From contig CAWFYB010000002.1 of assembly GCA_963819955.1 (NCBI GenBank), positions 413,917 to 477,916 on the forward strand: 64,000 nucleotides of DNA. Reading direction: 5' to 3'. The position numbers were made by a program, and so were the translations under genes. The stretch is from an uncultured Pseudomonadota bacterium. Lineage in GTDB: Bacteria > Pseudomonadota > Alphaproteobacteria > Rhizobiales > Xanthobacteraceae. This document shows positions 2,274 through 44,245 of the stretch, piece after piece (position 1 is the first letter of the stretch; each line of letters opens with the position of its first letter). Under the pieces are notes generated by a model. It was not told the origin of the DNA. It was given only the letters and a program-made list of their open reading frames with translations, and searched no databases.

Positions 2274-4017
2274 ATGCTCGCCCGCGTACAGGCGGCGGCG
2301 GGCGGCGTGCTCGGGCCCGACGCCGATCTCTCCCGCATCGTCGTCGAGCCGCCGCGCGATCCGAGCCACGGCGACATGGCGACCAACGCCGCCATGGTGC
2401 TGGCGAAGGATGCCGGCAAGAAGCCGCGCGATCTAGCTGAGCAAATCGCCGAGAAACTGCGTGCCGAGCCCAACGTCGAAAAAGTCGACGTCGCCGGCCC
2501 CGGCTTCATCAATCTCAGCGCTCAAGCCCGAGGTCTGGCCCGTCGAGCTGCACTTGGCGCTTACGCTCGGCCATGACTACGGCCGCTCCGCCATGGGCCG
2601 CAACGAAAAGGTCAATGTCGAATATGTCTCCGCCAACCCGACCGGCCCCTTGCATGTCGGCCACGGCCGCGGCGCGGTGTTCGGCGACGCGCTCGCCAGC
2701 CTGCTCGAATATGCCGGCCACGACGTCACGCGCGAATATTACATCAACGACGCCGGCGCCCAGGTCGACGCGCTGGCGCGCTCGGCCTACCTGCGCTACC
2801 GCGAGGCGCTCGGCGAGGCCATCGGCGAAATCCCGGAAGGGCTCTATCCCGGCGAATACCTGCGCCATGTCGGCGGCGTATTGGCCGAGGAGCACGGCGT
2901 CACGCTCACCACCATGCCGGAAGCCGAATGGCTGCCGCTGGTGCGCGCGCGCGCCGTCGCCCTGATGATGGAGCAGATCCGCGCCGATCTCGCCGCGCTC
3001 AACGTGCATTTCGACGTGTTCTATTCCGAACGCTCGCTGATCGAGGGCGGCGACGGCGACCAGGTGGGCGCCACCATCGAAGCCTTGCGCCAGTCGGGCG
3101 AGGTCTATGAGGGCCGGCTGCCGCCGCCCAAAGGCGGCGCCATCGAGGATTGGGAGGACCGCGAGCAGACTTTGTTCAAGTCGACCGATTTCGGCGACGA
3201 CGTCGACCGCCCGCTCAAGAAATCGGACGGCAGCTACACCTATTTCGCCTCCGACATCGCCTATCACAAATCCAAGGTCGCGCGCGGCTTCCGCAACCTG
3301 ATCGACGTCTGGGGCGCCGACCACGGCGGCTACATCAAGCGCATGCAGGCGGCGGTCAAAGCCGTCAGCGGCGGCCAGGCCGTGCTCGACGTCAAGCTGG
3401 TGCAGCTCGTCAAGCTGCTGCGCGCCGGCGAGCCGGTGAAAATGTCGAAGCGCGCCGGCGAATTCGTCACTTTGCGCGAAGTGGTCGACGAGGTCGGCAA
3501 GGACGCCGTGCGCTTCGACATGCTCTACCGCAAGAACGACGCCACGCTCGATTTCGACCTCGCCAAGGTGGTCGAGCATTCCCGCGAGAACCCGGTGTTT
3601 TACGTGCAATACGGCCATGCCCGCGGCCAGTCGATCTTCCGCACCGCGCGGGCCGAAATGCCCGACCTGCCGGAGGAGCCGGGCGCACGCTTGGCCTTTC
3701 TCGCCAAAGCGCCGCTCGAGCGGCTGAGCGAGCCTGGTGAAATCGACATCATGCGCCGGATTGCCCTTTTTCCGCGCACCGTGGAGGCCGCCGCCGCGGC
3801 CCATGAGCCGCACCGCATCGCCTTCTATCTATATGAATTAGCTAGCGAATTTCACGCGCACTGGACGCGCGGAAAAGACTTGCCTCATTTACGCTTCATT
3901 ATCCAGAATGATCCAGAAACAACCTTGGCGCGGCTCGCGCTGGTGCAAGGTGTGGTGACGGTGCTGGCCGCCGGGCTCGAATTGCTCGGGGTCGCGGCGC
4001 CGCAAGAGATGCGATAG
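2274..4017 (+). CDS. argS: Arginyl-tRNA synthetase (one frameshift near 2515-2522; start uncertain)
   Basis: [28 protein letters not shown] (HIGH), [22 protein letters not shown]. Confidence 0.97.
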
Positions 4018-4086
4018 GCCCGGCCGCTGGGGACGCGTTAGGCGCGGGCGGGCAGGGCGACCAAAAAGACCAGTACCGGGGACCGA

Positions 4087-5598
4087 ATGGCGGACGACTA
4101 TACCCAGCGACCCTTCCGTTCGAATCCAATGCCCCCGCGCGAGGCGCCAAATGCGGCGTCAGGTGCGGCGCCAAGTTCGGCGCAAAGCGCCGGCGCCGCA
4201 GGTTCCAGCAGCGATCCGCTCGCCGAGCTGGCGCGGCTGATCGGGCAGAACGATCCCTTCGCCGAATATGGCCACGAAAATGTGCCGCCGCCGCCGGCGT
4301 CGCCGCCGCGGACCGCGCAGCCCTCGCCCGATTGGGCAGCGCATGTTGCCGCCGATGCCGGCTATATCCCGCCGCCTTCGGCGCCGCCGCCGCCCGATCT
4401 GCATCCCGCCGAATATGCCCCGAGCGCGGCGGAGTATGTGCCGGCCGCCTACGAGCATGAGGGCGGCTACTACCCGAACACGCCGGCCTCGGAGGCCGAG
4501 CATCACGACTTCTACGACGATGTCCCGCCGCGCCGCCGCATGGGTATCCTTGCAATCGCTGCGGTTTTCGCGCTCGCCGTGATCGGCACCGCCGGCGCCT
4601 TCGGCTACCGCGCTTTGTTCGGCTCTTCTAGTCCGAGCGGCCCGCCGCCGGTCATCAAAGCCGACACCGCGCCGACCAAAGTCATCCCGGTGAAAAAGAG
4701 CGCCGATGCCAAGAACGGCAAGCTGATCTACGACCGCGTCGCCGATCATGGCCAAGGCGAAAAGCTTGTTTCGCGCGAGGAGCAGCCGGTCGACATCGAT
4801 CACAAATCGGCGGGCGTGGTGCTGCCGCACGACCAGAACGGCATGCCCTCCGGCTCGATCCAGCCGCCGCTCGGCAGCGGCGTGGTCGGCGGCGCGGCCA
4901 AGAAGATCCACACCATCGCCATCCGCCCGGACGGCACTGCCGTTGCCAATGCCGAGCCGAGCGCGCCGGTTGCACCGCCTGCACCGGCTGCATCGCCTGC
5001 TCCGACGCCTCCTCCGCCGCCACGCGAGACGCAACACGAGGTGCAGCCTGCGCCGCCGCCGTCGGCGGCGCCGATGACGCCGATGGCGCCGCATGCCGCG
5101 GCCGCCAAGCCGCAGCCCGCGCCGGCGCCGCGCCATACCACGACGGCGCGTAGCGAGCCGCCGGCCCGCCGGCATGAGGCCGCCCCGCGCAATGCGCCGC
5201 TCTCGCTCAACCCGAACGCCCCGGCGTCGGCGCGCGCCGAGCACCGTCCAATGCGCACCGCGACCGCGGCGCCGACCCAAATTGCACCCGCGCAGGCAGC
5301 GCGCACGCCGCGCGCAGCGCCTTCCCGCACCGCACCGGCAGCTCATAGCGGCGGCTATGCCGTGCAGGTCGCCTCCCGCCACAACGAGGCCGACGCGAAG
5401 GCCTCGCTACACAGCCTGCAAGCCAAATTCGGGCAGCAGCTCGGCGGCCATCAGACGCTGATCCGCCGCGTCGACCTCGGCGCCAAGGGCGTCTATTACC
5501 GCGCGCTGGTCGGCCCCTTCGCCAACTCCGAAGCGGCGAGCCAAATGTGCTCGAAGCTCAAGGCCGCCGGCGGCAACTGCTTCGTCCAGAGGATTTAA
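4087..5598 (+). CDS. SPOR-domain cell division protein (FtsN-like)
   Basis: DPLAELARLIG N-terminal motif, single TM, Pro/Ala-rich linker, C-terminal SPOR domain with CxxLKAAGGNC; position between argS and nagZ. Confidence 0.9.
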   Translation: MADDYTQRPFRSNPMPPREAPNAASGAAPSSAQSAGAAGSSSDPLAELARLIGQNDPFAEYGHENVPPPPASPPRTAQPSPDWAAHVAADAGYIPPPSAPPPPDLHPAEYAPSAAEYVPAAYEHEGGYYPNTPASEAEHHDFYDDVPPRRRMGILAIAAVFALAVIGTAGAFGYRALFGSSSPSGPPPVIKADTAPTKVIPVKKSADAKNGKLIYDRVADHGQGEKLVSREEQPVDIDHKSAGVVLPHDQNGMPSGSIQPPLGSGVVGGAAKKIHTIAIRPDGTAVANAEPSAPVAPPAPAASPAPTPPPPPRETQHEVQPAPPPSAAPMTPMAPHAAAAKPQPAPAPRHTTTARSEPPARRHEAAPRNAPLSLNPNAPASARAEHRPMRTATAAPTQIAPAQAARTPRAAPSRTAPAAHSGGYAVQVASRHNEADAKASLHSLQAKFGQQLGGHQTLIRRVDLGAKGVYYRALVGPFANSEAASQMCSKLKAAGGNCFVQRI

Positions 5599-5645
5599 GC
5601 GCTCGTCGCTTGACCCTTGCGGCGGGCGCGGGCTAATCGGCGCCC

Positions 5646-6674
5646 ATGCCTGCACGCGCATTTATCACCGGCCTGGCGGGATTGACCCTCACCGCCAACG
5701 AGCGGGCGTTCCTGCGCGAGGCTTGCCCCTGGGGCCTGATCGTCTTCAAGCGCAACGTCAGTTCGCCGGAGCAAGTCACTGAGCTCACACGTTCTTTCCG
5801 TGATGCCGTCGGCTGGGAAGCGCCCGTTTTGGTGGACCAGGAAGGCGGTCGGGTGCAGCGGCTAGGCCCCCCACATTGGCCCGTCTATCCCGCCGGCGCG
5901 CGTTATGGCGAGCTTTACGACCGCGAGCCGGCCTCGGGTCTGGCAGCGGCGCGGCTGGCCGGGCATCTGATTGCCTCCGACCTCAGGCCGCTCGGCATCG
6001 ACGTCGATTGCCTGCCGCTCGCCGACGTGCCGGTTCCCGGCAGCGACGCCATTATCGGCGACCGGGCCTACGGCAGCGAGCCCGGCAAGGTCGCGGCCAT
6101 CGCCGGGGCAATTACCCAGGGCCTACTGGCCGGCGGGGTACTGCCGGTACTCAAGCACCTGCCAGGCCACGGCCGCGCCCTGGCCGACAGCCACCACCGG
6201 CTGCCGGTGGTCGATACCGACCGGGCCACCCTGGAATCGACCGATTTTGCCGCTTTTAAGCCCTTGGCCGGGCTTCCGCTCGGCATGACCGCGCATGTTG
6301 TGTTTTCTTCGATCGACCCCGTCGCGCCGGCCACCACTTCGGTCACAATGGTGCGCGAAGTGATTCGGGGCTTTATCGGCTTCCGGGGACTGCTGATGAG
6401 CGACGACATATCGATGGGCGCCTTGGCCGGCCCGCTGGCCGCGCGCAGCCGCGCGGCGCTTACCGCCGGCTGCGATATCGTGCTCCATTGCAACGGCGAT
6501 CTCGCCGAGATGAGCGAGGTCGCAGGCAGCGTGCCGGAGCTGGCAGGCGAGGCGCTGGCGCGCGCCGAGGCGGCGCTCGCGCAGCGCGCAGCGCCTGAGG
6601 AATTCGACGTCGCCGCCGCGCGCGATCTTTTCGCCCGCATGATGGCCGGCGGGCAACGGATGAAGGTTTCATGA
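5646..6674 (+). CDS. nagZ: Beta-N-acetylhexosaminidase (GH3)
   Basis: VDQEGGRVQRL, KHLPGHG...DSH, MTAH, SDDISM. Confidence 0.95.
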   Translation: MPARAFITGLAGLTLTANERAFLREACPWGLIVFKRNVSSPEQVTELTRSFRDAVGWEAPVLVDQEGGRVQRLGPPHWPVYPAGARYGELYDREPASGLAAARLAGHLIASDLRPLGIDVDCLPLADVPVPGSDAIIGDRAYGSEPGKVAAIAGAITQGLLAGGVLPVLKHLPGHGRALADSHHRLPVVDTDRATLESTDFAAFKPLAGLPLGMTAHVVFSSIDPVAPATTSVTMVREVIRGFIGFRGLLMSDDISMGALAGPLAARSRAALTAGCDIVLHCNGDLAEMSEVAGSVPELAGEALARAEAALAQRAAPEEFDVAAARDLFARMMAGGQRMKVS

Positions 6675-7489
6675 GCGAAGAATTCGACAACACGCTGACC
6701 GAAGCCGACCGCGCCAGCGACGAGCCGGCGATGATCGTCGACGTCGAAGGCTTCGAGGGGCCGCTCGATCTGTTGCTGATGCTGGCGCGGCAGCAGAAGG
6801 TCGATCTCGCGAAAATCTCCATCCTGGCGCTGGCCGACCAGTATCTCAGCTTCATCGAGGCGGCGCGCAAATTGCGGCTCGAGCTCGCCGCCGATTATCT
6901 GGTGATGGCGGCCTGGCTGGCTTACCTGAAATCGCGCCTGCTGCTGCCGCAGGAAGCGCCGGGCGAGGGCCCGAGCGCGGAGGAAATGGCGTTGGCGCTC
7001 GCGCACCGCCTGCGCCGGCTGGAAGCCTTCCGCGAGGTGGCGTCGCGCCTGATGGGCCGCCCGCAGCTCAATCGCGACGTGTTCGCGCGCGGCGCGCCCG
7101 AGCCGATCGCCGAGATCAAGCAGCCGGAATGGTCGGCGACCCTCTACGATCTGTTGTCGGCCTACGCCATGCAGCGCTCGCGCAGCGCGCTGTCGCGCGT
7201 GCAGCTCAAGAAGCGCACGGTGTGGTCGCTGGCGGAAGCGCGCGAGGCGCTCGACCGCCTGATCGGGCAGTCGGGCGACTGGACGCGGCTCGATCAATTC
7301 CTCATCGCCTACGTGGTGGACCCCGCGCTGGCGTCCACGGTGTTCGCGTCGTCCTTCGCCTCCGCGCTCGAACTGGTGCGCGAAGGGTTGGCCGAAATCC
7401 ATCAGAAAGAGTCGTTCGCTCCGATCTACATGCGCAAGCGGGTCGGGGCGAATGGAAGCGCAACGCATGACGCGCAAGAAAACGCATAA
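6671..7489 (+). CDS. scpA: Segregation and condensation protein A
   Basis: FEGPLDLLL, ADYLVMAAWLAYLKSRLLLP. Confidence 0.95.
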   Translation: MSEEFDNTLTEADRASDEPAMIVDVEGFEGPLDLLLMLARQQKVDLAKISILALADQYLSFIEAARKLRLELAADYLVMAAWLAYLKSRLLLPQEAPGEGPSAEEMALALAHRLRRLEAFREVASRLMGRPQLNRDVFARGAPEPIAEIKQPEWSATLYDLLSAYAMQRSRSALSRVQLKKRTVWSLAEAREALDRLIGQSGDWTRLDQFLIAYVVDPALASTVFASSFASALELVREGLAEIHQKESFAPIYMRKRVGANGSATHDAQENA

Positions 7490-32810: not shown

Positions 32811-32916
32811 CCTCATCCTGAGGAGCCGCCGAAGGCGGCGTCTCGAAGGATGGGGCGGCCACATGGTTCGAGACGCCCGCCTTCGCTATTGCTTCGGCGG
32901 GCTCCTCACCATGAGG
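32811..32916. repeat. Intergenic palindrome, family D (CCTCATCCTGAGGAG..CGTCTCGAAGGATG plus inverted unit)
   Basis: Two inverted units; the same units occur inside uvrA at 43393-43491. Confidence 0.85.
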
Positions 32917-33518: not shown

Positions 33519-33752
33519 GCGCTATAGGAATAATGTCAAGAGCCAATTTGCGAGCTCTTGAAAACATAATTCAGGGTTGCACCTCAGTCGAAACCCCACT
33601 AAATGGCTGTGTACAATTGTCGCCAGCGTTCTTTAGTTGATGGGCTGAATGGCGTGTCTTCAGTAATCTCAGGCTTGACCAGATTCCGCGCCGGTGCGGA
33701 CTTTCGTAACGCGACGTCAATGGCAGCAAAGTCGTTTGGCACCGTATTGAAG

Positions 33753-35148
33753 GAGCTATGTGCGGAAGTTGGTGACGGCATGAAGGGGTAAGGCGGCGTA
33801 TCGTGGGGGTGTTCAACGCCTCCACTTCTCCACTGAAGGAGTGATACGCCGTGACCGACACTAACGTGATCAAGCTCGCTCAGCCAGGGACTTTCACCAA
33901 TTCGCTCACCGAGATTTTGCGCAACGGGGCACGTACCCTGCTCACGCAGGCCGTCGAGACGGAGGTCGCCGACTTCCTCGGGCGATACGCCGATCTCAAG
34001 ACCGAGACGGGCCGCCAGCGCGTCGTGCGCCACGGGCATCTGCCCGAGCGCGAGATCATGACCGGCATTGGGCCGGTGGCCGTGCGCCAGCCCCGGGTGC
34101 GCGACCGCGAGGCCGCCGGGGGCGGGCGGATTCGGTTCAGCCCGAGCATTCTGCCACCTTACGCGCGGCGCACGAAGAGCCTCGAAGTGCTGATCCCGAT
34201 CCTCTACTTGAAAGGCGTCTCGACCGGGGACTTCGGGGAGGCGCTGGCAGCGTTGCTCGGCCAGGACGCCGGTGGACTATCGGCATCGAGCATTGCGCGC
34301 CTGAAAGAGGCCTGGGTCGACGAGCACGCCCGCTGGCGCGACCGCGACCTGTCCGCCAAGCGGTATGTCTACGTCTGGGCCGATGGCATCTACGTCCAGG
34401 CCCGGCTCGAAGATGACGCGCAGTGTCTAATGGTGATCATCGGCGCCACCGCCGAAGGCAAGAAGGAACTCGTTGGGCTTGCCGACGGCATCCGCGAGAG
34501 TGCGCAATCCTGGAAGGAGCTGCTGCTCGATCTCAAGCGGCACGGCCTGACGATCTCCCCGCAGCTCGCTGTCGCCGACGGGGCGCTCGGCTTCTGGAAG
34601 GCGATCGATGAGGTATGGCCGAAGACGCGCGGGCAACGCTGCTGGGTGCACAAGACGGCGAATGTCTTGAACAAGCTGCCAAAGAGCCTGCAAGCAAAGG
34701 CCAAGCGTGTCTTGCAAGACATCTGGATGGCGCCGACCAGGACGGATGCCGAGGCTGCATTCGATGGCTTCATCGAATGCTATGGCGTCAAGTACGACAA
34801 GGCGGTCGAGTGCCTCAGCAAGGACCGCGAACCCCTGCTCGCCTTCTATGACTTCCCTGCCGAGCACTGGAAGCATCTACGCACGTCAAACCCGATCGAG
34901 AGCACGTTCGCGACCGTTCGGCATCGAACGGTCCGATCGAGAGGATGTCTTTCCAACAAGACCGCGCTCGCCATGATCTTCAAGCTCGCACAGGCCGCCG
35001 AGAAAAGCTGGCATCGTCTGCGCGGTCACGACCAGTTGCCAAAAGTCATCCTCGGAGTAAAGTTCAACGACGGAATCGAGGTCGTCAGATCGCAAGCTCA
35101 AACCGCCGCCGCCTGATCCCGCTCGTCACCAAGATTCGGCGATAACTC
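33753..35148 (+). mobile_element. IS256-family element, copy 1 (1396 bp; transposase 33851-35116)
   Basis: 421-aa Mutator-type DDE transposase; imperfect IRs GAGCTATGTGCGGAAGTTGGTGACG / CGTCACCAAGATTCGGCGATAACTC; perfect 9-bp target duplication GTATTGAAG (33744-33752, 35149-35157). Confidence 0.97.
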
Positions 35149-35248: not shown

Positions 35249-37229
35249 ATGCAGAAGATGTTGCTTCTGCCCAAGATAGATTTGCATCGCCATTTGACCG
35301 GCTCGATCAGCGCTACAACTGCTGTACGCCTAGCCGCCAAATATGACGTGAAGCTACCAACATATATTGCCTCTGAGTTGGAACAGCTGCTTTTTGCACA
35401 AAAAACAGTTCGGGAATCACAAAGAATACTTTTTGCCGTGGCCAATATTAAATCGTTTGTTTCCCTCACCAGAGGCGGTGCGGGACCTGATGTTCGCGGT
35501 CGTCCGTGATGCAGCGGAAGATAATGTAATTTACAGCGAAGTCAGATTGGGGCCTCGCGGATTTTTGGGCGATAGTGAATTTAAGTTCGATGAGTTTGCC
35601 GCTGGAGTCGCTGACTCGCTCAGGGAGGCAGATCAAGTATTTGGAACAATTACTAGATGCATCTTAAAGTCCGTCCGGAGACTTCAGGGCTGGATTACAG
35701 AGTTTTCGGAGCATGAGGCGAATTGAGGCGAGGCGCAAGAATGCGAGCGCCTTGCGGTTGAGGTTCTCCCAATCCTTGGCGAGTCTTCGGCAGCGATTGA
35801 GCCAAGCGATGGTGCGCTCGACGATCCAGCGTTGGGGCAAAACCACAAATCCTTTGACCCGATCGGAACGTTTGACGATTTCGATCATTGAGATACGGCA
35901 AGAGCCTTCGCAACCGCCTTCTGCAAATTGCGGTCCTTGATAGCCGCCATCGGCAAAGAGCTGTCTGCAAAAATGGAAACATCCCGAACAGCGTCGCCAG
36001 TGACGCAGATATGCCACCGTCACGATCTTGAATGTCGGCGGGATGAACGATGGCGTGGAGCAGCGAGGCCTAGCGTATCGACGAGAATGTGCCGCTTCTT
36101 GCCCTTGATCTTCTTGCCCGCATCGTAGCCGTGCGGATCGATGCAGGCCCCCCTTTTTCGGCGCTTTTCACGCTCTGGCTGTCGATGATGGCGGCAGTCG
36201 GACTGGCTTCCCGCCGGGCTTGTTCGCGACACTGCATCGTAAAGCGCGTGGTGGATCCGCTCCAATGTGCCGTCATAAGCTCCACAGATCGAAATAATCG
36301 TAGACCGTGCTATTGCGGTGGCAGGTCTTTCGGGATCGCGCGCCACTGACAGCCCGTGTTGAGAGAACGTACATGAGGCCGTTCACGACCTCACGCATGA
36401 TCACCGTCCGCTTCCCTGCCGCCGCGGCTTGCCGGGTGGGATCAAATGTTCGACCAGCTTCCATTCGTCATCGGTCAAATCGCTTGGGTAACGCAGCTTG
36501 CTGCGGTCGTAACGTCCACGGTTCTTGCTCGTCCACATTGGTGACCCTCCTCAAATAAGGCCACCACCCTTAAAATCACAACTGATTAATAGAAATTCAA
36601 GAACTGCTTCGGACAGACACTTAGGGATACCACGTCATGTTTTTATCAGAGTCCCCTCTGATGCGAGGAATAAGATGTTTGCGAAAATGCTCGCGACGAT
36701 ACGCGAGTATCCAGACTGCTTCGTCGGAGTGGATCTAAACGGTGACGAGTTGGCGGCAGAAAGTTCTGAATTTTTGAATTTTTTTAAAATGGCTGCCGAA
36801 ATAAATCTTCATGCGACTGTGCATGCGGGCGAACTGGGCAGCCCTGAAAGCGTGAAATATGCAGTTGACATGCTGGGAGCCTCGCGAATTGGGCATGGTA
36901 TTGCGGCGGCCCGTAGCGAGGAAGCGATGAAGTCAATTTCAGAAAAAAAATGCGTACTCGAAATATGCCCGACTAGTAATAAGTTCCTTGGGGTCGTAAA
37001 CGAAATTCGCGATCTTCCTCTACGTCTTTTCCAGGAACGCAAGGTTCCTTTTGCAATTTGTACGGACAACCCTGCTCGATGTCGGACTTCTATGTCCGAA
37101 GAACTTTTTAAAGTAACGAAGTTCTTTTCCTATTCGATTACTGACGTGCACGAATTAATTAAAAGCACTTTGGCAGCATCATTCGCTGATGAGCCGACAA
37201 AAAAACGGATAGCGGCACTCCTAAACTAA
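35249..37229 (+). pseudogene. Adenosine deaminase family enzyme, split by an IS5-family element and a frameshift near 35400-35415
   Basis: PKIDLHRHLTGS, NVIYSEVR, VGVDLNGDE, TVHAGE, RIGHG, LEICPTSN, ICTDNP; removing 35667-36623 restores TRCILGIPRH in frame. Confidence 0.9.
35667..36620 (-). mobile_element. IS5-family element (IS1031-like), transposase frameshifted
   Basis: MWTSKNRGRYDRSKLRYPSDLTDDEW (start 36538), AIIDSQSVK, GYDAGKKIKGKKRHILVDTLG, RWIVERTIAWL; TTA duplication at 35664-35666 and 36621-36623. Confidence 0.92.
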
Positions 37230-37267
37230 ATTGTGACCAGCAACTCGGTGGGCTGAGGGGGCGGGGG

Positions 37268-38663
37268 GAGTTATCGCCGAATCTTGGTGACGAGCGGGAT
37301 CAGGCGGCGGCGGTTTGAGCTTGCGATCTGACGACCTCGATTCCGTCGTTGAACTTTACTCCGAGGATGACTTTTGGCAACTGGTCGTGACCGCGCAGAC
37401 GATGCCAGCTTTTCTCGGCGGCCTGTGCGAGCTTGAAGATCATGGCGAGCGCGGTCTTGTTGGAAAGACATCCTCTCGATCGGACCGTTCGATGCCGAAC
37501 GGTCGCGAACGTGCTCTCGATCGGGTTTGACGTGCGTAGATGCTTCCAGTGCTCGGCAGGGAAGTCATAGAAGGCGAGCAGGGGTTCGCGGTCCTTGCTG
37601 AGGCACTCGACCGCCTTGTCGTACTTGACGCCATAGCATTCGATGAAGCCATCGAATGCAGCCTCGGCATCCGTCCTGGTCGGCGCCATCCAGATGTCTT
37701 GCAAGACACGCTTGGCCTTTGCTTGCAGGCTCTTTGGCAGCTTGTTCAAGACATTCGCCGTCTTGTGCACCCAGCAGCGTTGCCCGCGCGTCTTCGGCCA
37801 TACCTCATCGATCGCCTTCCAGAAGCCGAGCGCCCCGTCGGCGACAGCGAGCTGCGGGGAGATCGTCAGGCCGTGCCGCTTGAGATCGAGCAGCAGCTCC
37901 TTCCAGGATTGCGCACTCTCGCGGATGCCGTCGGCAAGCCCAACGAGTTCCTTCTTGCCTTCGGCGGTGGCGCCGATGATCACCATTAGACACTGCGCGT
38001 CATCTTCGAGCCGGGCCTGGACGTAGATGCCATCGGCCCAGACGTAGACATACCGCTTGGCGGACAGGTCGCGGTCGCGCCAGCGGGCGTGCTCGTCGAC
38101 CCAGGCCTCTTTCAGGCGCGCAATGCTCGATGCCGATAGTCCACCGGCGTCCTGGCCGAGCAACGCTGCCAGCGCCTCCCCGAAGTCCCCGGTCGAGACG
38201 CCTTTCAAGTAGAGGATCGGGATCAGCACTTCGAGGCTCTTCGTGCGCCGCGCGTAAGGTGGCAGAATGCTCGGGCTGAACCGAATCCGCCCGCCCCCGG
38301 CGGCCTCGCGGTCGCGCACCCGGGGCTGGCGCACGGCCACCGGCCCAATGCCGGTCATGATCTCGCGCTCGGGCAGATGCCCGTGGCGCACGACGCGCTG
38401 GCGGCCCGTCTCGGTCTTGAGATCGGCGTATCGCCCGAGGAAGTCGGCGACCTCCGTCTCGACGGCCTGCGTGAGCAGGGTACGTGCCCCGTTGCGCAAA
38501 ATCTCGGTGAGCGAATCGGTGAAAGTCCCTGGCTGAGCGAGCTTGATCACGTTAGTGTCGGTCACGGCGTATCACTCCTTCAGTGGAGAAGTGGAGGCGT
38601 TGAACACCCCCACGATACGCCGCCTTACCCCTTCATGCCGTCACCAACTTCCGCACATAGCTC
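37268..38663 (-). mobile_element. IS256-family element, copy 2 (transposase 37300-38565)
   Basis: Near-identical to copy 1; flanks GGGGCGGGG(G) / GGTGCGGGG resemble an imperfect target duplication. Confidence 0.97.
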
Positions 38664-38674
38664 GGTGCGGGGAA

Positions 38675-41050
38675 ATGTCGACTGAATTGCAACCGGTACA
38701 GGAAACTATCGGCCCCACACCCACCGATCGGCTGGCATTTATCAAGCGCAGATTTGAATGGGCTCTGGAAAAGAGATGGCCGATAGCCGCATTTCAAATT
38801 TTGAATGTCGTTTATTTGTTCTTCCTAGGTCGCGCTTATGGCGAAAAGGCCGATCCAGCGTACATCATCATGGCTGCGATAGCATATGTAATTATCTTCG
38901 GTTTTGGACAGTATCTTCTCGTTGATACACCGAAGCAAATTAAAGAGAGGGCGGATCGGGTTGCGCAGCAAGCAAGAGCATTTCTTACAAAGCAAATGGA
39001 TATTTTTTCTACTGCGGAAAAATTTCTAATTTCAAGACTTCGAAAGATGATATGAAGTTTTGTCAACTCTTCAAAATGCCGAGCCAAGCGTCATTCGTCG
39101 GGTGGCGCAGCAAAATTTGAGTAAACAGGATTTGCTTAATGCCGCTTTGAGAGACCTCTGCAACGCCCAGACAGCGATCGCCGCGAAGACCCTGCAAGTT
39201 CCGCTGCAAGAAGCTCTCTTTCGAGCAACGTTTATGGAGGTTCAAGGGACCGGGCCAGATGAAAAACTCGGTTACGTTGCTTGGCACACCTGGGAAGACC
39301 TCCCGCCGCAGTCGATGACTAAAGGTATCACCTTTAGAAGAGGGGAAGGCTGCGCTGGAATTGCGTGGGATCGAAACAAAGTTGTGATCGAAGATGCATT
39401 AAGACCGGGTCATGAGTGGAAAAACAGAGTTATCGCCGAATCTTGGTGACGAGCGGGATCAGGCGGCGGCGGTTTGAGCTTGCGATCTGACGACCTCGAT
39501 TCCGTCGTTGAACTTTACTCCGAGGATGACTTTTGGCAACTGGTCGTGACCGCGCAGACGATGCCAGCTTTTCTCGGCGGCCTGTGCGAGCTTGAAGATC
39601 ATGGCGAGCGCGGTCTTGTTGGAAAGACATCCTCTCGATCGGACCGTTCGATGCCGAACGGTCGCGAACGTGCTCTCGATCGGGTTTGACGTGCGTAGAT
39701 GCTTCCAGTGCTCGGCAGGGAAGTCATAGAAGGCGAGCAGGGGTTCGCGGTCCTTGCTGAGGCACTCGACCGCCTTGTCGTACTTGACGCCATAGCATTC
39801 GATGAAGCCATCGAATGCAGCCTCGGCATCCGTCCTGGTCGGCGCCATCCAGATGTCTTGCAAGACACGCTTGGCCTTTGCTTGCAGGCTCTTTGGCAGC
39901 TTGTTCAAGACATTCGCCGTCTTGTGCACCCAGCAGCGTTGCCCGCGCGTCTTCGGCCATACCTCATCGATCGCCTTCCAGAAGCCGAGCGCCCCGTCGG
40001 CGACAGCGAGCTGCGGGGAGATCGTCAGGCCGTGCCGCTTGAGATCGAGCAGCAGCTCCTTCCAGGATTGCGCACTCTCGCGGATGCCGTCGGCAAGCCC
40101 AACGAGTTCCTTCTTGCCTTCGGCGGTGGCGCCGATGATCACCATTAGACACTGCGCGTCATCTTCGAGCCGGGCCTGGACGTAGATGCCATCGGCCCAG
40201 ACGTAGACATACCGCTTGGCGGACAGGTCGCGGTCGCGCCAGCGGGCGTGCTCGTCGACCCAGGCCTCTTTCAGGCGCGCAATGCTCGATGCCGATAGTC
40301 CACCGGCGTCCTGGCCGAGCAACGCTGCCAGCGCCTCCCCGAAGTCCCCGGTCGAGACGCCTTTCAAGTAGAGGATCGGGATCAGCACTTCGAGGCTCTT
40401 CGTGCGCCGCGCGTAAGGTGGCAGAATGCTCGGGCTGAACCGAATCCGCCCGCCCCCGGCGGCCTCGCGGTCGCGCACCCGGGGCTGGCGCACGGCCACC
40501 GGCCCAATGCCGGTCATGATCTCGCGCTCGGGCAGATGCCCGTGGCGCACGACGCGCTGGCGGCCCGTCTCGGTCTTGAGATCGGCGTATCGCCCGAGGA
40601 AGTCGGCGACCTCCGTCTCGACGGCCTGCGTGAGCAGGGTACGTGCCCCGTTGCGCAAAATCTCGGTGAGCAAATCGGTGAAAGTCCCTGGCTGAGCGAG
40701 CTTGATCACGTTAGTGTCGGTCACGGCGTATCACTCCTTCAGTGGAGAAGTGGAGGCGTTGAACACCCCCACGATACGCCGCCTTACCCCTTCATGCCGT
40801 CACCAACTTCCGCACATAGCTCTTGGAAACCAGTGATCGAATGTCATTGTCGATATATTTCAATGATCTCCGTTCCAAGTGTTCGTAAAGGCTAATGGCG
40901 ATGCGGAAAGTATCGTCGGGGTCATCAGCCTTGCGATATACCCGGTTGGCGTATGGCTTAATTTCGGCTAAGAAGTGATCAGCAGGTGGAGCATGCTGAC
41001 ATCCGGTAATAAATATCCCCTGTGCCAATGGAGCCAGCCGTTACAATGAG
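38675..41050 (+). pseudogene. Two-TM plus GAF-like domain membrane protein, split by IS256 copy 3 and frameshifts; 3' end approximate
   Basis: TMs WPIAAFQILNVVYLFFLG and YIIMAAIAYVIIFGFGQYLLV; FRRGEGCAGIAWDRNKVVI before the IS; YISMISVP and IVGVISL after it (GAF strand pattern). Confidence 0.7.
39427..40822 (-). mobile_element. IS256-family element, copy 3 (transposase 39459-40724)
   Basis: Near-identical to copies 1 and 2, 1396 bp; flanks GGAAAAACA / TTGGAAACC match only loosely. Confidence 0.97.
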
Positions 41051-41189
41051 TGCAACGGGATTCGTGATACTCGTCTAGTTCCTTCCATGTGCCACTACGG
41101 CGCAAATATATAGCATTTGTCTGCGTAGTTCAGATGGTGAATGCCTACACCGAGTTCGGGTTTGAAAAAGCTGCAGAGCACTAGTTTTT

Positions 41190-44245
<3,056 letters not shown>

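Follow-up and report, generated by a model that had tools for sequence, protein, structure and literature searches.

An inactivated adenosine deaminase–GAF gene cassette in a Xanthobacteraceae genome, a possible remnant of Kongming-like phage defence

The interrupted cassette and its insertion elements

The window considered here is a stretch of 64,000 nucleotides from an uncultured Pseudomonadota bacterium of the Xanthobacteraceae (GenBank assembly GCA_963819955.1, contig CAWFYB010000002.1, positions 413,917 to 477,916 of the forward strand). At ~33.4–41.2 kb, it contains an island with a guanine-plus-cytosine (GC) content of 45–50%, as against 63–70% in the flanks and 67% in the genome as a whole. 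Within the island are the remains of a two-gene cassette, consisting of an adenosine deaminase (ADA) gene (gene 1) and, downstream on the same strand, a gene for a protein with two transmembrane helices (2TM), a coiled coil and a GAF domain (gene 2). This copy is a non-functional pseudogene, broken by insertion sequence (IS) elements and by smaller lesions. Related pairs occur at other loci, and their deaminases are probably kin to KomA, the first enzyme of the Kongming anti-phage system. The original prediction for this DNA had described two co-directional, low-GC genes, ADA followed by 2TM-GAF, with IS elements between and within them, and that description holds for both the composition of the island and the matches of gene 1 to the ADA family PF00962. 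The features of the locus, in window coordinates, are as follows.

33753–35148, plus strand: IS256-family copy 1, ~100 bp 5′ of the ADA start codon, with its transposase open reading frame (ORF) at 33851–35116
35249–35404, plus strand: ADA pseudogene piece 1, residues 1–52, with the HxH metal motif DLHRHL (PF00962, E 7.5e-8, 32.3 bits)
35400–35405, plus strand: A6 run with a +1 frameshift in ADA; homologues read QK-QFGNHKEYF across it, and the tblastn high-scoring segment pairs switch frame
35412–35666, plus strand: ADA pseudogene piece 2, with the motif EYFLPW of the clade and KomA (PF00962, E 1.4e-9, 37.9 bits)
35667–36620, minus strand: IS5-family element, 954 bp long and bordered by a TTA duplication at 35664–35666 and 36621–36623
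36621–37229, plus strand: ADA pseudogene piece 3, with HAGE, RIGHG, CPTSN and TDNP (PF00962, E 5.4e-44, 151 bits)
37268–38663, minus strand: IS256-family copy 2, lying in the ADA–gene 2 spacer
38675–39052, plus strand: gene 2 piece 1, with the two hydrophobic helices and the beginning of the long one, 57% identical to P0124 residues 23–130
39053–39055, plus strand: TGA stop in gene 2, made by a 1-nt insertion; P0124 reads RKMI-EVLA through this position
39057–39425, plus strand: gene 2 piece 2, covering the helical linker and the GAF domain's first half, with FRATFMEV, GEGCAGIAW and VIED (phmmer E 8e-44 to P0124)
39427–40822, minus strand: IS256-family copy 3, splitting the GAF domain
40824–41187, plus strand: decayed 3′ remnant of gene 2 in several frames, overlapping the end of the uvrA ORF
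Segments of this remnant: RYISMISVPSVRKG at 40851–40892, DAESIVGVISL at 40900–40932, TAA at 40966–40968 and YIAFVC at 41107–41136

All three pieces of gene 1 exceed the PF00962 cut-off of 27 bits, and intact homologues match this family along their full length. The catalytic and metal-binding motifs that had been predicted (HxH, HAGE, RIGHG, CPTSN and TDNP) are all legible in the window. Piece 3, which ends in a stop codon at 37227–37229, is 59% identical to the protein P0003. Once IS256 copy 2 is removed, gene 2 begins (at 38675) ~41–49 nt past the ADA stop (37229), in agreement with the 40–50 bp of spacing expected. Scans of the gene 2 pieces with Pfam, NCBIfam and PADLOC matched nothing in the window.

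Two further claims needed correction. Excision of the IS elements had been thought to leave two genes, and neither ORF is in fact restored by it. Because of the frameshifts and nonsense codon in both genes, the cassette is dead even after excision in silico: ADA carries the +1 frameshift at the A6 run, and gene 2 carries the TGA at 39053–39055 followed, past IS256 copy 3, by a minimum of two additional frame changes and the TAA at 40966–40968. In addition, the end of the pair had been put at 41050, and remnants of gene 2 reach ~41187. As a pseudogene, the cassette should have little functional consequence for this genome, in which (at 86.7% completeness) neither a second copy of the ADA or GAF gene nor any other PF00962 gene was found.

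The three IS256-family copies are each 1396 bp long and mutually 100% identical, and encode a transposase of 421 aa that matches PF00872 (E 2e-62). The IS5-family element has its own transposase in at least three broken ORFs, with matches to DUF4096 and DDE_Tnp_1. The target-site duplications of the IS256 copies are all imperfect (for example, GTATTGCAA / GTATTGAAG) despite the identity of the elements, as seen when the flanks at 33745–33752/35149–35157, 37259–37267/38664–38672 and 39418–39426/40823–40831 are compared. The possibility that the two genes were artificially joined by an IS-mediated inversion or deletion was considered and rejected, since the two flanks of each IS256 copy are similar, if imperfectly so, and swapped combinations of flanks mismatch; moreover, intact loci elsewhere have the identical gene order. 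An apparent 13-nt extension of the repeat shared by copies 1 and 3 was discarded as an artefact of ungapped extension, with 9 of the 13 positions matching.

Conservation of the pair and its two protein families

The association of the two genes does not depend on this one locus. A search with the C-terminal window piece of ADA found close relatives at 45–60% identity and 179–273 bits, and scores fell sharply from at least 179 bits inside this group to at most 115 bits for ordinary ADAs. On three long contigs carrying a member of the group, one of them from Bradyrhizobium sp. YR681, the next gene was a homologue of gene 2 encoding 354–373 aa. Conversely, an exhaustive phmmer search with the GAF half of gene 2 returned 31 matches among 1.84 billion cluster representatives, ~25 of which are 310–385 aa long and share a common architecture. 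Look-ups of divergent members and scans of genome and metagenome collections brought the number of further independent loci whose sequence sufficed for a judgement to 13, and an ADA gene was adjacent or nearby at 12 of them. The GAF gene directly follows it at L001/L004 (Bradyrhizobium sp. YR681, contig NZ_AKIY01000210.1; at L004, ADA at 4874–5932 and the GAF gene at 5965–7083), L002, L003, L006, L007/L008, L009, L013, L014 and L015, and the two genes are convergent and adjacent at L005. At L011, the C-terminus of a TDNPARC-type ADA at the contig edge precedes the gene for P0139, a variant GAF protein treated below. A different arrangement is found at L021 (2673–6322), where ADA and the divergent GAF gene are separated by a GFO_IDH_MocA oxidoreductase gene on the ADA strand; this enzyme might belong to that subtype as a third component. 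P0153, encoded downstream of the GAF gene at L012, was considered as an alternative enzyme partner and dismissed, having no match in Pfam or PADLOC and looking like a secreted protein.

The co-occurrence of homologues, named beforehand as a test on which the predicted pairing could fail, was thus found at nearly every locus, and the two families also co-vary. Pairwise distances between the ADAs and between the GAF proteins of nine loci are correlated (Spearman rho 0.86, Mantel p 4e-4), and the genes have therefore travelled together, down to ~25% identity for ADA and ~20% for the GAF protein. The cassette is nevertheless rare and patchy. It was found in none of 200 relatives, 120 of them genomes of the same genus, and a search with a 7-sequence alignment found it in two of 185,579 species genomes and at five metagenome loci. 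No match was obtained with the GAF protein by tblastn against plasmid and phage collections.

The GC content of the cassette is below that of its flanks at every locus examined, and several copies are in mobile or defence surroundings. At L003, the cassette is between the PADLOC candidate PDC-M11A on one side and, on the other, a type II restriction–modification system (methyltransferase and BglII/BamHI-type endonuclease) together with an SNF2 helicase gene. The PDC-M11 genes (2951–5836 of that locus) are directly upstream of the pair and comprise the A component (E 3.9e-164) and two small downstream ORFs. L002 carries genes for AlpA, Replic_Relax, a TrwB-like protein and an integrase along with MazG, Nmad2 and HMUDK genes; integrase and/or Replic_Relax genes are also present at L005 and L006, and a Cas4-like nuclease gene adjoins the pair at L008. 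Defence genes thus surround the pair at L003 and mobile-element genes accompany it at L002, L005 and L006, and the neighbours of the window cassette and of L001 are not defence genes.

Decay of the cassette is also recurrent, with three of 14 loci affected when the window is counted (the window, L009 and L015). At L009 (430–1843), a deletion has fused ADA residues 1–288 to residues 171–352 of the GAF protein, with loss of the 2TM segment and coiled coil. L015 (144–1300), on a metagenome contig, is the closest relative of the window cassette and has its ADA split into ORFs of 211 and 152 aa, which reflects either a broken gene or a sequencing error.

The deaminases linked to GAF genes are set apart from other members of their family, as the original prediction required. 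In a tree of 115 ADAs, they form one clade apart from the 99 others (Shimodaira–Hasegawa-like approximate likelihood-ratio test, SH-aLRT, 94), with a core of 14 sequences at SH-aLRT 99, and so do not group with ordinary add-type enzymes. The catalytic residues (H, H, HAGE, H and D) are conserved in 81–100% of the clade. Its specific features include Y-F-x-P-W in the lid region, G187, L274 and C305, an insert of ~8 residues with a conserved Arg and Lys, and, as in KomA, an Asn instead of Asp at the second position of the DD pair.

Kinship to KomA was suggested by other observations as well. Among plasmids, the best match of a clade member was the leading gene of a Kongming operon carried by a Vibrio parahaemolyticus plasmid. 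This operon (KomA-KomB-KomC, L022, 4989–7308) is located beside an IS256 element and tet(B), and a second one (L026, 1345–3670, with the same three genes) comes from E. coli, where it is present in 80 of 5426 complete genomes. Both KomAs have E/D-Y-L-x-P-W, the clade shares EY[FL]xPW with KomA, and P-W at this position occurs in none of the 99 other ADAs. Both KomAs also have S-D-N-P, within the [ST]-D-N-P common to KomA and the clade. In two trees, built by quick searches from the two KomAs of verified operons and disjoint halves of the outgroup, with no Cad1 or RdrB sequence among them, KomA and the GAF-linked clade fell on one side of a branch with SH-aLRT values of 95.8 and 93.6. Sequence identity to KomA is ~30–34%. 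Taken together, the case for kinship between the GAF-linked clade and KomA is good but not conclusive. Matches to RdrB profiles were confined to short stretches (NCBIfam E 0.23, PADLOC E 0.019). The PADLOC CARF_ADA profile was matched much more strongly (E 1e-44 to 1e-46), with the match limited to profile positions 253–594, its ADA half.

The partner protein was examined through an AlphaFold2 model of the homologue P0122, based on a 19-sequence alignment and with a mean predicted local distance difference test score (pLDDT) of 82.5. The model has two N-terminal helices, a helix of ~85 residues and an alpha/beta domain at residues 150–327, mostly at pLDDT >90. Every top Foldseek match of this model in the PDB was a GAF domain, as were nearly all of the 50 best matches listed (E 1.5e-7 to 1.6e-5), with template-modelling scores by target of up to 0.69. 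These matches include Nlh2, the cyclic GMP-binding GAF domains of PDE5 and PDE6, the cyclic AMP-binding GAF domain of Lcd1, and fRMsr. As modelled, then, the C-terminal domain of gene 2 is a GAF fold, and the hydropathy of the family likewise agrees with the predicted succession of two transmembrane helices, helical linker and GAF-like domain, in that most members have two hydrophobic segments. Of the four refuting conditions named beforehand, the three that were examined (absence of co-occurrence, grouping of the ADA with salvage enzymes, and a second protein unlike GAF) all came out in favour of the prediction. Pfam GAF_2 gives the homologues 22–26 bits, below its cut-off of 28.6, and the window pieces no match. 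Recurrent motifs of the family are FRATYMEV, GxGxAGxAW, NYxGQ, SMxCVPV and VIGVITVDT. An identity of the domain with fRMsr (free methionine-R-sulfoxide reductase), which gave the highest template-modelling scores, was considered and set aside; fRMsr scores no better than GAF domains that bind cyclic nucleotide monophosphates (cNMPs), and no other feature points to it. Domain scans found no transporter, kinase or DNA-binding output domain in the GAF protein.

Modelling also supports a dimeric GAF protein, with the qualification that resemblance to solved GAF dimers may add to the score. The homodimer model scored 0.46, compared with 0.00 for the best control; its runs had at least 85% of contacts in common, with a partner pLDDT of at least 70. 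Of 30 proteins solved as pairs, 20 attained this mark, as did one of 23 solved as single chains. The modelled interface is a parallel coiled coil that runs along the transmembrane helices, the long helix and the final helix of the GAF domain. P0139 (L011, 189–1508) departs from this plan as a variant without a hydrophobic segment, in which a TIR-like or nucleoside deoxyribosyltransferase-like domain precedes the GAF domain. Its N-terminal domain matches the PADLOC TIR-effector model PDLC00733 (E 1.4e-8), and also matches clusters of nucleoside 2-deoxyribosyltransferases and of CAP12-Pycsar-TIR proteins. The ADA that precedes it is still of the clade type. CBASS, Pycsar and Thoeris effectors show such an exchange between 2TM and TIR modules with the sensor domain kept constant.

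Two further observations concern the surroundings of the island in the window. The last ~37 codons of uvrA (3′ end at 41075–41290, minus strand) come from island DNA and overlap the gene 2 remnant; the tail seems unlike a native UvrA C-terminus, which suggests a frameshift or a replaced end. In addition, a GC-rich palindromic repeat of 46 nt occurs at 32811–32856, in an intergenic region, and at 43447–43492, inside the uvrA ORF, the two copies being 83% identical.

A possible role in nucleotide signalling and its alternatives

The island is best explained, with a probability of roughly 55%, as the inactivated remnant of a horizontally acquired, Kongming-like phage defence system that signals through a base-modified nucleotide and has a new kind of sensor-effector, the GAF protein. 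By analogy with KomA, the deaminase encoded by gene 1 would act on an adenine nucleotide, such as dAMP. The resulting inosine nucleotide might build up only during infection, as dITP or ITP, after phosphorylation by phage and host kinases. The deaminated nucleotide could then be bound by the cytoplasmic GAF domain of the probably dimeric gene 2 protein, and the signal would run down the long parallel coiled coil to the N-terminal 2TM hairpin, which would damage the membrane and abort the infection. In one relative, P0139, the TIR-like domain would provide the output instead. 

Several findings weigh against this interpretation. The neighbours of the window island are housekeeping genes (uvrA, a dienelactone hydrolase and a sulfite oxidase), and no defence gene adjoins the pair at L001, where the neighbours are a ribonucleotide reductase and a ParB-like gene. 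No ADA gene is present on the 3.1-kb contig of L012, and the GAF protein matches none of the PADLOC v2.0.0 models. Several members, the window copy among them, have a first helix of only moderate hydrophobicity. The GAF domains of fRMsr, cNMP-binding proteins and sigma-54 regulators score about equally, and the fold gives no indication of its ligand. As for the deaminase, [ST]DNP is also found in ~36% of other ADAs, and the grouping with KomA involves long branches and takes its support solely from the SH-aLRT of quick searches, with one value below 95.

One alternative would have the deaminase itself as the effector, in the manner of RADAR RdrB or Cad1, flooding the cell with (d)ITP or draining it of (d)ATP, with the GAF protein sensing infection, acting as a regulator or forming a second, independent effector. 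Effector activity is known for stand-alone defence ADAs of the RdrB and Cad1 type, the ADA half of CARF_ADA is strongly matched, and the enzyme keeps all of its catalytic residues. Yet the typical killing modules, 2TM and TIR-like, are swapped on the GAF protein and not on the ADA, which at ~340 aa has no extra regulatory or sensor domain. Moreover, the ADA groups with KomA, a signal maker, in the trees from which Cad1 and RdrB were omitted, and the Cad1 chains of the PDB score far below ordinary ADAs. We consider this arrangement unlikely. It is quite unlikely that the cassette is an accessory module outside defence, in which a mobile purine or nucleoside deaminase would be accompanied by a membrane GAF sensor of adenosine, inosine or a cNMP and would serve salvage, detoxification or stress signalling. 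Such a role would suit the metabolic and housekeeping neighbours in the window and at L001, the oxidoreductase gene placed between both genes at L021, the many metabolites that GAF domains sense, and the lack of any other PF00962 gene in the bacterium's own genome (as noted, 86.7% complete). It is harder to reconcile with the very patchy and rare distribution, the low-GC signature and the integrative or mobilizable carriage, with a GAF protein devoid of transporter, kinase or DNA-binding output, with the existence of the TIR-like variant, with the defence genes on both sides of the L003 cassette, and with decay as frequent as that seen in the window, L009 and L015.

A toxin–antitoxin-like addiction module of mobile elements, with the 2TM-GAF protein as a membrane toxin restrained by a metabolite under the control of the deaminase, is very unlikely. 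A tight, co-inherited two-gene unit on mobile elements would fit this idea, as would a 2TM membrane protein that could be toxic and the repeated inactivation in the window, L009 and L015, which suits a costly module. Known antitoxins, however, are unlike the ADA, a metabolic enzyme of full size; no helix-turn-helix or autoregulatory element was seen; and the orientation is not that of a fixed operon, being convergent at L005 and divergent at L021. In addition, the border with abortive-infection defence is blurred, as many toxin–antitoxin systems defend.

The preferred interpretation, an inactivated Kongming-like defence cassette, carries a broader proposal, namely that KomA-like deaminases with 2TM-GAF or TIR-GAF partners constitute a second, so far unnamed family of base-modified-nucleotide defence, in which GAF would be the receptor of an inosine-type signal independently of KomBC, and in which killing directed at the membrane or at NAD would be set off through a coiled-coil GAF dimer. 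This proposal is tentative, and we put it slightly short of an even chance. Base-modified nucleotide signalling (Kongming, 2024–25) is so far known with one effector type, KomBC. If the cassette does defend, the KomA-type deaminase would be a portable signal module coupled to at least two unrelated sensor-effectors, and GAF, a widespread sensor fold found even in eukaryotic phosphodiesterases, would join the receptors of immune signals. The TIR-like-GAF variant would also offer a simple in vitro handle for ligand identification, P0139 being a good candidate reporter because it is soluble. Surveys of defence islands may have missed the family because of its rarity (the 31 matches in 1.84 billion). 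The pairing had been put forward as new to described systems, and no description of it was found in PADLOC v2 or in the literature searched, which excludes subscription-only papers; in concept, it has a precedent, as it parallels the Kongming combination of KomA with a dITP-sensing effector.

Comparison with known systems

Kongming is the closest parallel. It consists of the dAMP deaminase KomA, the HAM1-like dITP sensor KomB and the SIR2 NADase KomC. KomA prefers dAMP and cannot deaminate dATP, and the dITP signal is completed by a phage deoxynucleoside monophosphate (dNMP) kinase together with the host's NDK (nucleoside diphosphate kinase) (10.1101/2024.12.20.629578). The Kongming preprint surveys the partners of KomBC and describes no alternative effector for KomA (10.1101/2024.12.20.629578). 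As in Kongming, the first gene of the cassette encodes a stand-alone ADA-family enzyme of ~330–350 aa, a sensor and killing module follow downstream, and carriage is on mobile elements. Unlike Kongming, a single 2TM-coiled-coil-GAF or TIR-like-GAF protein takes the place of KomB and KomC, and the ADA clade has the ~8-residue Arg/Lys insert that is missing from KomA. Neither a KomB (HAM1-like, PF01725) nor a KomC (SIR2-like) gene was found in the window island or beside the paired loci, and the cassette is therefore not a member of Kongming as that system is defined.

RADAR and Cad1 provide further examples of ADA-family enzymes in anti-phage immunity. In contrast to RADAR, there is no RdrA ATPase here and no RdrB architecture of 850 aa, and in contrast to Cad1, the ADA of ~340 aa has no CARF domain and no cas genes nearby. 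The ADA of RADAR and Cad1 is an effector, whereas that of the cassette is probably a signal maker. Judged by its sequence content, the cassette belongs to none of Kongming, RADAR or Cad1.

The GAF protein, for its part, is comparable to the single-protein effectors of Pycsar and CBASS and to the 2TM-Macro ThsA of type II Thoeris, in which a killing module (2TM or TIR-like) is likewise joined to a sensor and the modules are interchangeable. The sensor here is GAF rather than a cNMP-binding, SAVED or Macro domain, and the partner is a deaminase rather than a cyclase, CD-NTase or TIR protein; no nucleotide cyclase was seen at any paired locus. Finally, the cNMP-binding GAF domains of PDE5 and PDE6 (GAF-A), Lcd1 and CyaB2 resemble the modelled protein in their fold and in a parallel dimer along the flanking helices. 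They differ from it in that identity is 13–19%, the cassette family has motifs of its own, and its predicted output is a membrane hairpin instead of a catalytic domain.

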